From: a virus
Taxonomy: Duplodnaviria > Caudoviricetes
IMG/VR virus record: IMGVR_UViG_3300021958_011541
Location: 16,001-80,000 of that record
Reading direction: 5' to 3' (one strand)
DNA: 64,000 nucleotides
Position 1 is the stretch's first letter; every line of letters begins with the position of its first letter. The translations under genes were made by a program, and so were the position numbers. Under the pieces are notes generated by a model. The model ran no database searches, was not told where the DNA came from, and worked only from the letters and a program-made list of their open reading frames with translations. Below are positions 7,498 through 16,052 of the stretch, in pieces.

Positions 7498-7632
7498 ATG
7501 AATAATTTAATAGACTGTTTTACTTCTGCCTGTCACCACCCTGAGCACTTGATTATACCCTTGCTTGTTGTTGCGAGCATTGGGGTAATTTTTTATAGCT
7601 TTTGTAAAGCGAAAAAATCTAAATCGAGATAA
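7498..7632 (+). CDS. Small single-pass membrane protein (44 aa), below the ORF-track cutoff
   Basis: MNNLIDCFTSACHHPEH-LIIPLLVVASIGVIFYSF-CKAKKSKSR; TTGAAC-N16-TATAAT ends 5 nt before the ATG. Confidence 0.55.
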   Translation: MNNLIDCFTSACHHPEHLIIPLLVVASIGVIFYSFCKAKKSKSR

Positions 7633-8902
7633 TATCTAAAACAGGCTCTCCTTTGTTTGAAACCTGAAAAGGTCGCCCAGAAGGAGAGTAATGAATATCA
7701 TTTAATGATAAACCCATTAAATGAGCAATTGTTGCATTTAAATCTTCAGGTTGAATAGGGTTTTCGACAACCTCCATAGCTCTATCATCGCTTTGCCCAT
7801 AAGTTGTTCCTCCCTTAATGCCTCCACCCACTAGCAAAGCAGAAAAAGCTTTCGGCCAATGATCTCTTCCGTTTCCTGGATTAATAATTGGCGTTCTGCC
7901 GAATTCAGAAGTTAAAACAACTAAAGTATCATAAAGCATGCCTCTAATTTCTAAATCTTGAAGCAAGGCACTAACAGCTTTATCTACATCTTGACAATTT
8001 GCCTCAACCCTTTCGAAATTATTACTATGCGTATCCCAACCGCCTTTCGTAACCTCTATATACCTAACATTGTGTTCTGCTAATCTTCGAGCGAGCAAGC
8101 AACCTTGCCCAAAGTTCGAAGAGCCATATAATTCATGCATGGATTCTGGTTCCGCAGTAATATCAAAAGCTTCAATGTCTTTACTTCTCATTAATTTTAC
8201 AGCATCTTTATATAAATCACTATAAGCTCTAACTTGTTTTTGGTTATATTTATTTACAAAATCTGAATTTAATGTTTGAGAGAGTAATATTCTGCTGTCA
8301 AATTGACTTTCGGTTAAATATTCATGCATTTTACTATTTGCGAGTCCAGCTTTTGGGTTTCCGATAGGTACTGCGTTATATTTTGCCTCAAGAAATCCAG
8401 CGTTTCCTCCTGCTCCGCCTCCAATTTTTACATGGGGTGGTATGCTTCTATTTAATGTTCCAGTTAATTTTACCGCCCAACTTCCAAAAGTAGGATGAGT
8501 AATCGTTCCTCGCTTCTGATAGCTCGTATGCATCAGATAGCTGGCTTGCATATGAGCTCCTTGGTTGCTAGTTAAAGACCTTATGATTGCTCCATTATGT
8601 AAGTGTTGGCCAATCTTTTGGAAATTCTGAGATATAAAAATTCCGTCTGCACTGGTTGGAACTGCTTCAACTGGGCCTTGAACTTCTGGGCCAGAATCTG
8701 GCTTTGGATCTAATGTGTCTATGTGAGACATTGCACCTGCCATATTTAAGTATATGACTTTGCGAGCCTTAGCAATCTTTTTTGTTGTTTCTATTCCATG
8801 CGCAAGATTATGGATGTAGTTGCCTGTCAGAGAAAATAAACCTACTCCGAGACAACTCTTAGCCATGCTTGCTATTACTTGTCTGCGAGATAATTCGTTC
8901 AT
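7619..8902 (-). CDS. DUF1501 family protein with twin-arginine signal
   Basis: SRRQVI Tat-like motif; VIYLNMAGAMSHIDTLDPKP, GQGCLLARRL, GGWDTH, SEFGRTP, GRDHWP. Confidence 0.9.
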   Translation of the reverse strand: MNELSRRQVIASMAKSCLGVGLFSLTGNYIHNLAHGIETTKKIAKARKVIYLNMAGAMSHIDTLDPKPDSGPEVQGPVEAVPTSADGIFISQNFQKIGQHLHNGAIIRSLTSNQGAHMQASYLMHTSYQKRGTITHPTFGSWAVKLTGTLNRSIPPHVKIGGGAGGNAGFLEAKYNAVPIGNPKAGLANSKMHEYLTESQFDSRILLSQTLNSDFVNKYNQKQVRAYSDLYKDAVKLMRSKDIEAFDITAEPESMHELYGSSNFGQGCLLARRLAEHNVRYIEVTKGGWDTHSNNFERVEANCQDVDKAVSALLQDLEIRGMLYDTLVVLTSEFGRTPIINPGNGRDHWPKAFSALLVGGGIKGGTTYGQSDDRAMEVVENPIQPEDLNATIAHLMGLSLNDIHYSPSGRPFQVSNKGEPVLDIISI

Positions 8903-8929: not shown

Positions 8930-9363
8930 TGGTGGAGGTGGCGGGAGTTGAACCCGCGTCCTGATAGCCTTCAAGCTAACACGTCTACAAGTATAGTTAA
9001 TTTTTTTTATGGTTTTGATATTAACATCCAACCCTCTGTTTCAATTATTCACCTAGAACTAGGGCCCCCGAATACTCAGTGGTACAGTTTTTGATACAGA
9101 TAAACTTTTTCTGTTTTGCAGATCGATGACCCCTTTGCCTCTTTATCTGCGTCAAGAAGTAAGAGGCTAACAGCCTATGCTGCTAGGGCGAGCTTGCGGC
9201 TCTTGTAACCGAAGCGCTTTGCAGCGATACGATTTTTGAAGCCGAGAGCTCTAACATGTTTTTTAGCGCCATGTAAAGCTTTTGCACATTGATAGGGGAG
9301 CCGTAGTGCAATCTCCCTCTTGCAGTGTTAGAATTCAACTTCAGTCAAATCCAGAACACCCCC
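8930..9363 (-). ncRNA. ssrA: tmRNA, one-piece, 434 nt
   Basis: 5' GGGGGTG pairs with 3' CACCTCC-ACCA including G3.U70; T-arm GCGGG-TTCAACT-CCCGC; internal reading frame ends LALAA-stop (9285-9175). Confidence 0.97.
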
Positions 9364-9393
9364 ATAAACTGTTAAAGAACTAAGTATAGTATA

Positions 9394-9398
9394 TACAC
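9394..9398 (-). promoter_or_regulatory. GTGTA motif upstream of the tmRNA
   Basis: GTGTATATACT 30 nt before the mature 5' end. Confidence 0.5.
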
Positions 9399-9406
9399 TA
9401 GAAAAG

Positions 9407-11857
9407 TTAAGTCAAATTAATTTTTAACTTTCCTTTTGAAATACTAAGAGTTAAACTCGAGGAAGATATTGGACAAGAGGAAGACTTACTTTCTAAAATT
9501 ATTTTAGCAAGGTCATTTTCTAATTCTTTTTTAATTATATGTTTAACTGGCCTTGCCCCATCATTTAATTTAATTGCTTTATCTGAAATATATTTGTATA
9601 CAGCAGGTTTAACGACAATATTATTAATCGAAGAATTGATTTTAGAAAGACTTTTGTCTAGCTCTAATTTAGAAATTTTGAGTAAATCTTGTTCTGAAAA
9701 TGTATTAAATACAGCAAAAGTTTCTATACGATTAACTAATTCAGGTTTTAATTTTTTCTTTGCCGCTTCAAGAATTTTATCAGTTTGATCTTCCTTGGTA
9801 TTTGAACTCATGAAACCAACTGTAGAGCTTTTTTTAAGAAAGTCTGATCCAATATTTCCTGTTATTATAATAATACAGTTTCGAAAAGAAATCAATCTTC
9901 CCGAGCTATCAGTTAATTTTCCTTCTTCAAGAATTTGAAGCAATAAATTTGTTACATCTTCGTGAGCCTTTTCCACTTCGTCAAAAAGCAAAACCGAATA
10001 AGGTTTTTTTCTAACTCTTTCTGTCAAAGCTCCAGAAGATTCAAAGCCTACATATCCTGGTGAAGCTCCCACAAATTTTGCCGTTGAAGCTTGTTCTGAA
10101 TACTCTGACATATCAATATGTATTAAGCTTTTTTTATCTCCAAAAGCTAAATTTGCAACTTGTTTTGCTAAGTATGTTTTTCCTACACCACTAGTTCCCA
10201 GACATAAAAAACTACCTATTGGCTTTTCTTCATCTTTTAAACCTGCCTTATTTCTAATTAAGGTCTCGCAAATAGAGTGAATTGCTTCGCCTTGGCCAAT
10301 AACAACGTTTTTAAGTAAAGATTCTAGCTTTAAAAATTTGTCAGCTTCTGAAGTTGAAATGTCATCAATTGGAACTCCAGTTTTTTGAGATACAACTTTA
10401 TATAAATCTTTTTTACTAACTACAATTTCTTTAGAAGTGGAGTCTTCTGCCCAATCTTCAATAACTTCTTGGTATTTTTTCATTAACTTGTCTCTTTTTC
10501 GCATAATAATATTAGGCTCGCTTGATTTTAGCTCGACTTCGTATAGTTTATTAATTTCTGATTCAATCAGCAATGCTTCTTCGGGCCTTTTGAATGCATG
10601 AATTTTTGATTTTGCCCCTGCTTGATCAATTAAATCAATTGCTTTATCTGGCAATTGTCGATCTAATATAAATCTCGAAGCAAGCTTTATAGATTCTTCT
10701 AATAATTCATCTTCATATCTTACTCCATGAAAAATTTCATACTTTTCTTTTAAACCTTTAAGAATCTCAAGGCAATCTTTTTCATTTGGCTCTTCTATTA
10801 AAATAGGTTGAAACCTTCTATCTAATGCTGCGTCTTTTAAAATTGTTTTTCTATATTCTTCTTGGGTCGTTGCGCCTATGCACATGATATCTCCCCTGGC
10901 AAGCATAGGTTTAAGTATATTGGCTGCATCCATTGTACCCTCTGCACTACCAGCTCCAACTATCGAGTGTATTTCATCAATAAATACAATTGCATTTGGG
11001 TCTTTTTTAATTTCATCCATAGTATTCTTTAAACGTTCTTCAAACTGACCTCTATATTTCGTGCCTGCAATCATGCTTGCCATATCTAAAGAGTAAATTT
11101 TTTTCTTGTATAAAAATTCAGTTACAGTTCCTTCGATAATTTTTTGAGTTAAACCTTCTATCACTGCAGTTTTTCCTACACCAGCATCCCCTAAAAGAAT
11201 CGGATTATTCTTACTTCTCCTACAAAGAACTTCTGAAATATCTTTAATTTCTTTATCTCTGCCTATGACTTTATCATACTTTCCCAGTTCTGCTTTAGAA
11301 TTCATACAAAAGAAAAAATTAGATTTAAGAGATTCTTTATTGTCTTCAATTTCTTTTGGAAGATACTTGGCTTCCGCAGATAATCTTGTAGATTCTAAAG
11401 TATCTGCACTTGATATCAAAAACTGAGATCTTATTGTCAGAATACAGGATTGTAAACTCACTTCATTGCTTAGAAAAAATTCAGAAATTAAATTTTCTTC
11501 CTTTTTGAAGATTGATAAAAGTATGTGTTGTACTCCTATGTAATCATGCTCGTGCTTTTCTGCTTCCAATACTGCTCCGCCCAAAATAGATTTGTATTCT
11601 GCTGAAAAATAATTTTTTTTCGTTGGAGATGTTTGATTCTTTTTTAGTTTTTTAGAAATAAAAATTGTGAGATCTTTTCTATTCAAAGAAAAAGTATCAA
11701 ATAAAACCTCCAACGCTTGATTGTCAACTTTAGCTAATGCTAAACATAAGTGGTCTTCATTCACTACTCTTTTGTTATAAGAAAGCGCAAGCTTTCTTGA
11801 AGCTGCAATAATTTCTTGCGCTCTTGGGGTAAAATTAGGTTTAAGGTCCATATTCAT
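9407..11857 (-). CDS. clpC: ClpC-type AAA+ chaperone/protease ATPase subunit
   Basis: Clp-N domain, GDAGVGKT and GTSGVGKT Walker A motifs, GTKYRGQFEERL, short middle domain, VGF ClpP-docking loop. Confidence 0.9.
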   Translation of the reverse strand: MNMDLKPNFTPRAQEIIAASRKLALSYNKRVVNEDHLCLALAKVDNQALEVLFDTFSLNRKDLTIFISKKLKKNQTSPTKKNYFSAEYKSILGGAVLEAEKHEHDYIGVQHILLSIFKKEENLISEFFLSNEVSLQSCILTIRSQFLISSADTLESTRLSAEAKYLPKEIEDNKESLKSNFFFCMNSKAELGKYDKVIGRDKEIKDISEVLCRRSKNNPILLGDAGVGKTAVIEGLTQKIIEGTVTEFLYKKKIYSLDMASMIAGTKYRGQFEERLKNTMDEIKKDPNAIVFIDEIHSIVGAGSAEGTMDAANILKPMLARGDIMCIGATTQEEYRKTILKDAALDRRFQPILIEEPNEKDCLEILKGLKEKYEIFHGVRYEDELLEESIKLASRFILDRQLPDKAIDLIDQAGAKSKIHAFKRPEEALLIESEINKLYEVELKSSEPNIIMRKRDKLMKKYQEVIEDWAEDSTSKEIVVSKKDLYKVVSQKTGVPIDDISTSEADKFLKLESLLKNVVIGQGEAIHSICETLIRNKAGLKDEEKPIGSFLCLGTSGVGKTYLAKQVANLAFGDKKSLIHIDMSEYSEQASTAKFVGASPGYVGFESSGALTERVRKKPYSVLLFDEVEKAHEDVTNLLLQILEEGKLTDSSGRLISFRNCIIIITGNIGSDFLKKSSTVGFMSSNTKEDQTDKILEAAKKKLKPELVNRIETFAVFNTFSEQDLLKISKLELDKSLSKINSSINNIVVKPAVYKYISDKAIKLNDGARPVKHIIKKELENDLAKIILESKSSSCPISSSSLTLSISKGKLKINLT

Positions 11858-15834: not shown

Positions 15835-16052
15835 GGTTTAAACTTCTCTAAAATGCTTTTTACAACTAACTCTCTAGTGTTATCTACCTCATCTGGAAGA
15901 CTAGTCTTTTTTCCTATAAGAGACTCAGCTTCAAGTATAGAATTATCTATAATTTTTTGCATTTCCCCACTGTATATTGAATGCTCTTTAATATAGTCTG
16001 CAAGAATCAATAAGTTTTCTATTGCAGTTTTTTGTTTTTTGTTTAACATCAT
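15831..16052 (-). CDS. Hypothetical protein
   Basis: 73-aa ORF; GTGTA at 16060-16064. Confidence 0.65.
   Translation of the reverse strand: MMLNKKQKTAIENLLILADYIKEHSIYSGEMQKIIDNSILEAESLIGKKTSLPDEVDNTRELVVKSILEKFKP

Follow-up and report, generated by a model that had tools for sequence, protein, structure and literature searches.

A one-piece transfer-messenger RNA (tmRNA; ssrA) gene of 434 nt lies at positions 8930-9363, minus strand, of the window, by which we mean the whole stretch of phage DNA analysed here: 64,000 nucleotides (positions 16,001 to 80,000) of the IMG/VR virus record IMGVR_UViG_3300021958_011541 (Duplodnaviria; Caudoviricetes). We consider it probable that this gene specifies a working phage tmRNA derived from those of the bacterial order Opitutales, that translation resumes at GGC 9270, and that its long basic tag stems from an expanded hairpin within the tag open reading frame (ORF) and is constrained both as RNA and as peptide. 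tmRNA tags are usually regarded as short, simple signals for degradation, and phage tmRNAs as parts borrowed from the host; typical tags comprise about ten residues with an acidic N-terminal part (ANDENYALAA in Escherichia coli), which is read by adaptors such as SspB. The family to which the window tmRNA belongs is widespread in marine phages and keeps the rescue scaffold nearly constant, while the tag template appears to vary by hairpin expansion and cassette replacement, with phage tags reaching two to three times the length of those of the likely host and the opposite charge.

This tmRNA was the only one detected by ARAGORN across the window, and the Rfam model RF00023 matches identical coordinates (102.6 bits compared with a gathering score of 47 bits, E = 6e-39, model positions 1-374, not truncated), upholding the tmRNA gene that an earlier note on this DNA had proposed. 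A tRNA-Ala-like acceptor stem, the T-arm and the 3' CCA are all present: as read from the sequence, GGGGGUG pairs with CACCUCC in the acceptor stem, G3 stands opposite U (G3.U70) and the 3' ACCA is encoded. Compensatory changes in the acceptor stem (G4-C/C4-G) and in the T-arm are found across the tmRNA family. Pseudoknot 1 (PK1; 9282-9317, minus strand, as are all tmRNA features given below), located by per-sequence helix search, consists of stem A (GGGAG/CTCCC) and of stem B, in which TTGCAC (9311-9306) pairs with GTGCAA (9287-9282). Both stems are found in 32/32 family members, stem A as 12 and stem B as 19 different sequence pairs, all of them complementary, and because the two stems covary through this many forms we regard PK1 as real. 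The stop codon of the tag lies in the AUAG loop of helix 5 (9167-9186; RNA fold and hairpin scan), which has an 8-bp stem. The covariance-model alignment covers the PK2-PK4 region at low posterior probability, and the PK2 motif GACGCAGAUA...AUCUGC is invariant across the family. The window holds a complete tmRNA with its sequence hallmarks.

ARAGORN, the Rfam alignment and the context conserved in the family all set the resume codon at GGC 9270-9268. The tag reading frame (9175-9270) runs from there through 31 sense codons to the stop TAG at 9177-9175; frame and stop had been placed correctly by the earlier note. The resulting peptide (P0001) contains ten Lys/Arg, one His and no Asp/Glu, has a calculated net charge of about +10 and a pI of about 12, and ends in LALAA. 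The description of an unusually long, acid-free and highly basic tag that retains the C-terminal ALAA therefore holds, at 31 residues. Recorded tag lengths range from 8 to 35 residues (PMC11431127), and the window tag falls inside this range.

Patterns derived from the scaffold matched 20, then 85 IMG/VR viral contigs of 4-214 kb, in which the family resume rule yields coherent open frames throughout. A BLAST search of GenBank phages (50,697 records) gave no match at E 1e-5; at E 1, matches were confined to the terminal ~45 nt. Tabulated over 53 unique ORFs, most of the family carries short, basic tags (20-21 residues, net charge +3 to +6, 28 unique ORFs), next to short, near-neutral ones (19-21 residues, -3 to +2, 11 unique ORFs, for example at loci L154, L155 and L213). 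Long, basic, acid-free tags of 31-32 residues and +10 to +11 (nine unique ORFs) occur in the window and at L020, L162, L164, L177, L180, L193, L200, L206 and L209, and long, strongly acidic tags of 34-40 residues and -10 to -11 (five unique ORFs) at L011, L012, L014, L016 and L151.

Peptide and RNA constraints on the tag segment

The long basic frame is kept open in nine distinct alleles of 31-32 codons on 11 phage contigs, all of which encode 10-11 Lys/Arg and no Asp/Glu. Variable sites among the eight distinct 31-codon alleles are distributed 6:5:19 over the three codon positions, and codon differences in the tag frame amount to 196 synonymous and 112 non-synonymous ones, whereas the two shifted frames give 74/247 and 25/277. 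The long open frame is more than chance. Within hairpin codons 8-27 the distribution is 4:2:15, a third-position variation that argues for constraint on the tag peptide itself. The +1 frame (9175-9269), with its 74 synonymous and 247 non-synonymous differences, shows no coding signature and was rejected as the tag frame; it is open through the hairpin for 28 codons in three long-basic alleles, with its stop in the 5' arm of helix 5. An amphipathic helix in the tag found no support, as its hydrophobic moment was reached by 171/1000 shuffles.

At the RNA level, codons 7-27 form an imperfect 62-nt hairpin (9190-9251; RNAfold minimum free energy structure) capped by a GCAA tetraloop at 9222-9219. 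RNAfold yields z = -2.6 for the 126-nt tag region, and the structure is the consensus of the nine long alleles, with four pairs changed on both sides. A Phe-to-Tyr replacement specific to the window (codon 22) is compensated by a synonymous AAG-to-AAA change in codon 12 (pair 54/84). The folding energy is -26.1 kcal/mol for the 63-nt ORF core of the window; synonymous recodings that follow the codon usage of the phage average -8.4 +/- 2.6, and 0/500 reach the native stability. Native cores beat their recodings in 12/12 representatives tested (0-2 of 500 as stable), and upon recoding of all unique ORFs, 5/5 long-acid and 7/9 long-basic cores pass (<=2 of 200 as stable).

Every class has an ORF hairpin, which measures 8-13 bp in short tags and reaches ~21 bp in long basic and ~25 bp in acidic ones. 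By alignment, the long basic form equals the short basic form plus a palindromic insertion of ~33 nt at the hairpin tip: the 33-nt (11-codon) apical segment (9205-9237, borders approximate) is absent from sister tags of 20-21 codons, and a comparison of L162 with L156 shows a common hairpin base and an extra apical part. This qualifies the proposal that everything except the degron had been rewritten, since the window tag does differ sharply from those of the host lineage and is in fact a 20-21-residue family tag with a 33-nt palindromic insertion. No further copy of the apical segment is present in the window, and the insertion was accordingly rejected as a repeated element. RNAalifold produced no consensus hairpin from the sequence alignment of 39 short-tag ORFs, because their hairpins sit in different registers and frames; short-tag hairpins were assessed by per-sequence folds and recoding tests. 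The hairpin insertion therefore implies that RNA structure, beyond peptide function, shapes the length of the tag and probably its composition.

The tag segment is thus dual-constrained, codon choice maintaining the pairing and third-position-biased variation maintaining the peptide; both constraints are supported by the data, and we rank neither above the other. Three observations pull away from this reading. Firstly, the first seven codons vary as 1:3:2, without third-position bias, so that the peptide constraint is demonstrated mainly for the hairpin-encoded part. Secondly, translation of an AAGCUU-type stem gives K-A-F or K-S-F, depending on the member. Thirdly, reading an A/U-rich palindrome in frame could by itself account for much of the basic composition.

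They lead to the strongest alternative, namely that the enlarged hairpin was selected as RNA, for nuclease protection, protein binding or ribosome pacing, and that the basic peptide apart from LALAA is a tolerated by-product: an A/U-rich palindrome under the requirement of an open frame would give Lys, Phe, Leu and Ala codons. We hold this to be possible, if clearly the less likely explanation. Each tag class has a hairpin inside its ORF though basic and acidic cassettes are without significant nucleotide similarity; codon choice is strongly biased towards pairing, to the point of the compensating synonymous change in codon 12; tag length tracks the number of paired bases with r = 0.99 over the 53 unique ORFs; the frame in which one stem motif is read differs between members; and a small precursor hairpin is found in host tmRNAs. 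All of this speaks for selection on the RNA. However, pairing alone does not predict that variation in the hairpin codons concentrates at third positions, nor is it easily reconciled with a net charge that stays at +10/+11 in the nine long-basic and at -10/-11 in the five acidic alleles, or with an excess of synonymous over non-synonymous differences that is confined to the tag frame. That the acidic and the basic cassette might be frame-shifted forms of a single sequence was considered separately and rejected, the nucleotide similarity between them being no better than that of shuffles.

Resume codon and length of the tag

The dual-constrained 31-residue tag depends on the position of the resume codon. 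The context UA(C/U)(A/U)U|G(G/C)C is family-wide, reads UACAU|GGC in the window, and is placed 11-13 nt past PK1 in 29/32 members. In the window, a single-stranded spacer of 11 nt (9271-9281), whose context is conserved in the family, ends in UACAU, which places U at -5 and A at -4. The distance from PK1 to the ORF is 11 nt in a published review (PMC11431127), and U85 and A86 of E. coli tmRNA are the counterparts of the -5 U and -4 A, with A86 acting as the main frame determinant (PMC2481249). The length of 31 residues follows from GGC 9270 as set by ARAGORN, Rfam and the family context.

The earlier note had instead read a 36-residue tag from GCA 9285, rewritten possibly to alter routing through SspB, ClpXP or ClpC or to confer affinity to nucleic acids or ribosomes, a reading that we judge unlikely. 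The frame is indeed open from 9285, over 36 codons with 11 Lys/Arg and no Asp/Glu, and the LALAA end, a tag charge opposite to that of host-lineage tags, and a clpC gene 43 nt upstream, in a proximity to tmRNA that recurs in the family, would all suit this proposal. Yet GCA 9285-9283 is base-paired inside the 3' strand of PK1 stem B and is not the tag start, which had been set five codons too early, and sister tmRNAs either lack these five additional codons or have them out of frame. The note had named ARAGORN or Infernal with structural alignment as the means of fixing the resume codon; ARAGORN and the Rfam alignment return its frame and stop and move the start to GGC 9270-9268. This shift towards the stop is 15 nt only, leaving the tag long, and none of ~50 host-order tmRNAs has a tag that is both long and basic. 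As for routing, a search for SspB (PF04386) that was positive in the E. coli and Caulobacter controls had no match in five candidate-host-family genomes, so that SspB is not a plausible reader of the tag. Moreover, ClpC identity to the window protein shows no link with tag class in the few partial sequences compared, and the tag has no significant helical amphipathicity. Altered routing of tagged chains may nevertheless apply.

It is very improbable that the tag is actually short, with translation resuming at an internal downstream Ala codon, for instance at the hairpin tip. ARAGORN does pick internal or wrong starts in several sisters, so automatic start calls are fragile in this family, but U-5 and A-4 at a fixed distance from PK1 are invariant and internal positions are not conserved. 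In addition, the frame is open from the resume context in all 53 unique ORFs, and the third-position bias spans codons 8-27, upstream of any internal start.

A further feature of the resume region is that ACAUGG can pair with codons 5-6 (CAUGU/CGUGU of a conserved Arg/His-Val; 9258-9275). A 5-6-bp hairpin around the resume codon is possible in every long allele and in many of the short alleles, and a comparable potential pairing of positions 85-90 with 95-100 has been described for E. coli (PMC2481249).

Phage family, likely host lineage and proposed origin

In a tree of the scaffold with the tag removed, one clade of 15 comprises nine long-basic and four long-acid members together with two short-basic ones, and L016 carries an acidic cassette on a scaffold from another clade. 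On the strength of this tree and of L016, the tag template switches class while the scaffold is conserved, in part through exchange. The L016 tmRNA (L016:6810-7251) is itself a mosaic, its acceptor stem and 3' scaffold grouping with the short-tag clade and its PK1 and 34-residue acidic cassette matching L012 and L151, which suggests recombination within the gene. A decaying, non-functional copy of a host tmRNA with a drifting tag frame, which the modest Rfam score of the window (102.6 bits versus 118-143 bits in short-tag sisters) and the lack of SmpB in the phage record might recall, is barely credible given the compensatory changes in acceptor stem, T-arm and PK1, the conservation of the long allele on 11 contigs from many samples and its occurrence in RNA libraries, the lower score being explained in the Rfam alignment by the insertion inside the tag ORF.

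Standard annotation misses or miscalls the tags of this family, which is of practical relevance. ARAGORN reported no tmRNA in six complete members among the first 20 loci, where Rfam gives 103-137 bits; the members discussed in this respect are L020, L021, L024, L028, L030 and L116. In 11 members it either chose the wrong frame or cut the tag short. For the L013 group (L013, L015, L023, L025-L027 and L029), it returned a wrong-frame 15-residue tag that starts inside PK1, and in the acidic group (L011, L012, L014 and L016) tags were shortened to 16-21 of 34-40 residues, with 21 of 34 codons reported in L011 and L012.

The likely host lineage is marine Opitutales (Verrucomicrobiota), as judged from tmRNA and neighbouring-gene sequences. 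In nhmmer searches, a profile of the phage family aligned over its full length only to Opitutia tmRNAs (L112 and L121), and its match to gammaproteobacterial tmRNA was restricted to the tRNA-like ends. Directly downstream of the window tmRNA, a DUF1501 gene (7619-8902, minus strand; Pfam PF07394, E = 7.5e-111) shares 57-64% identity with genes from metagenome-assembled genomes (MAGs) of marine Opitutales/Opitutia.

Thirty tmRNAs of the order Opitutales encode tags of 8-21 residues, and 18 further ones, from the family with the best DUF1501 relatives, encode acidic tags of 16-18 residues with 3-4 Glu. The pattern in this host family is G-x-x-N-[IV]-[IV]-x-F-E-P-E-[LF]-E-A-L-A-A, a skeleton common to the usual phage tags; compared with the host type, the window tag is homologous, inverted in charge and 13-15 residues longer. 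Long basic tags are absent from the ~50 host-order tmRNAs. Opitutales tmRNAs have a small 8-bp hairpin at the corresponding place of the ORF, and F-E-P-E-L-E is the translation of that hairpin, so the 16-21-residue Opitutales tags may owe their extra length to an RNA helix. At L112 and L216-L233, F-E-P-E-[LF]-E is encoded by UUCGAGC, a 4-nt loop and GCUCGAA.

The tmRNA sequence was found in 20 public runs of marine, estuary and salt-marsh origin, six of which are metatranscriptome libraries. Contigs of 423 and 424 nt from two salt-marsh metatranscriptome runs lie wholly on 8932-9355 with five differences; the variants within the ORF are three synonymous changes and one Ser-to-Gly replacement, the latter also present in L180. 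Flanking genes have little or no cover in the RNA-library contigs, a missing cover that is not evidence in itself. A sigma-70-like promoter (TTGACT-16-TATACT; 9388-9415), a pattern match with 10/12 consensus positions that overlaps the end of clpC, would imply a leader of ~17 nt before the mature 5' end.

We propose that the ancestral tag was of the 16-21-residue marine Opitutales type, with a small hairpin already in the ORF, and that this hairpin was remodelled and enlarged in the phage family, whose common tags are 20-21 residues long and carry a net charge of +2 to +6. The sub-lineage of the window would then have gained the 33-nt palindromic apical insertion, giving rise to the 62-nt hairpin and a 31-32-residue tag of +10, and sister tmRNAs would have acquired an unrelated hairpin of 66-90 nt encoding tags of 34-40 residues with a net charge of -10. 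During infection, host alanyl-tRNA synthetase would charge the tmRNA via G3.U70, host SmpB would be used, and the stalled ribosome would resume at GGC 9270, appending the charging Ala and the 31 encoded residues. The LALAA end would send tagged chains to host ClpXP, possibly also to phage ClpC docking on host ClpP. As the basic body replaces the acidic host segment, the handling of tagged chains would be expected to change; selection of the peptide for a partner other than the reader of the acidic host tag may be involved, as one of two competing explanations.

Further observations sit uneasily with this origin and with a functional tmRNA. The best single DUF1501 match (68%) is encoded on a contig of 210.8 kb that was assigned to a Cellvibrionales MAG by binning, which bears on a host assignment that is in any case indirect. 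Neither SmpB nor ClpP was found in the phage record, which spans 80 kb and is ~59% complete, so that a phage SmpB or ClpP may lie outside it. Assembled contigs from RNA libraries cannot show RNA ends and may reflect DNA carry-over, and the data consequently give a weak hint at a discrete tmRNA-sized transcript.

The Cellvibrionales-binned contig (L031/L116; G001 contig C4, 210,818 bp) harbors a family tmRNA with a 21-residue basic tag and an adjoining DUF1501 homologue, and the tmRNA and smpB of the MAG itself are on a different contig. It looks like a related phage of the jumbo type that was misbinned, or a hint at another host.

The window tmRNA shares with the one-piece E. coli type (RF00023) the tRNA-like domain, G3.U70, CCA, PK1, a spacer of 11 nt behind it that contains U-5/A-4, a resume codon beginning with G, the LALAA end and a stop codon in the loop of helix 5. 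It differs in its tag (31 versus 10 residues, +10 versus acidic), in the extra 62-nt ORF hairpin, and in its location on a phage genome with no SmpB gene found beside it. With the tmRNAs of marine Opitutales/Opitutia it has in common the tag skeleton G-x-x-N-[IV]-[IV]-x-F...ALAA and an ORF hairpin at the matching place, whereas host tags are acidic (3-4 Glu, 0-1 Lys) and do not exceed 21 residues, the host hairpin has ~8 bp compared with 21-25 bp in the phages, and outside the tRNA-like domain the two have diverged beyond BLAST detection.

Published phage tmRNAs include those of the mycobacteriophage Bxz1 group and Bacillus phage G (PMC4131195), a two-piece ssrA in the Methylophilales phage Melnitz (PMC9004378) and those of huge phages (PMC7162821), with ~2.3% of sequenced phages stated to carry a tmRNA (PMC9004378). 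Like the present family, they are carried by large phages, usually without proof of function. A link between tag length and an ORF hairpin, or sister tags of +10 and -10, is not mentioned in the sections seen of PMC4131195, PMC9004378 and PMC7162821. Against this background, the size and coherence of an uncultured marine tmRNA family, its descent from a tmRNA of Opitutales type, the close link of tag length to an expandable ORF hairpin, and the +10 and -10 sister tags of up to 40 residues on near-identical scaffolds all appear to be new. The family offers a testable system for the role of phage tmRNAs in infection, for the function of a long tag body beyond the terminal Ala-Ala, and for the co-evolution of RNA structure and coding.

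A bolder and rather doubtful extension is that the tag template acts as an exchangeable, dual-coded cassette, in which growth or replacement of the hairpin gives peptides of +10 or -10 on near-identical tmRNAs. If true, phages would diversify the peptides added by trans-translation to nascent chains of host or phage origin; the fates of tagged proteins could then differ and include delivery to phage ClpC with host ClpP, sequestration, or evasion of a host factor, and the hairpin could add a regulatory or protective RNA function.

Genomic neighbourhood and partner proteins

Same-strand neighbours of the tmRNA comprise a ClpC-type unfoldase, a DnaE core, an exonuclease and the DUF1501 gene. The gene directly upstream (9407-11857, minus strand) encodes the ClpC-type double-AAA+ unfoldase, as judged from the Pfam domains AAA_2, AAA_lid_9, AAA and ClpB_D2-small and a weak Clp_N match. 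DnaE, clpC and a nucleoside deoxyribosyltransferase-like gene form a conserved synteny in the family, and in L020, L021, L014, L015 and L028 clpC precedes the tmRNA by 0.1-6 kb on the same strand. The first nine clpC-related loci have no tmRNA within 4 kb, and some of these contigs carry one farther off. The 43-nt adjacency of clpC and tmRNA in the window is one arrangement of a looser conserved neighbourhood. At L002-L010, L162, L185 and L205, ClpC is 42-44% identical to that of the window and the family tmRNA is several kilobases away from clpC.

Identity to the window ClpC amounts to 42% in the long-basic L162/L007, 49% in the long-acid L014 and 40-46% in the short classes; covariation of ClpC with tag class found no support, as the identities do not follow class among these few partial sequences. 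ClpX, recognised by its zinc-finger domain, is encoded in 5/5 candidate-host genomes. The C-terminal L-A-A of the ClpX-type ssrA degron is present in the window tag, which with 0 Asp/Glu is without the acidic N-terminal part bound by SspB-type adaptors.

At the start of the window, a match to the manA RNA motif (RF01745) that runs off the first base covers positions 1-192 on the minus strand, with 58.5 bits compared with a cut-off of 55.2.

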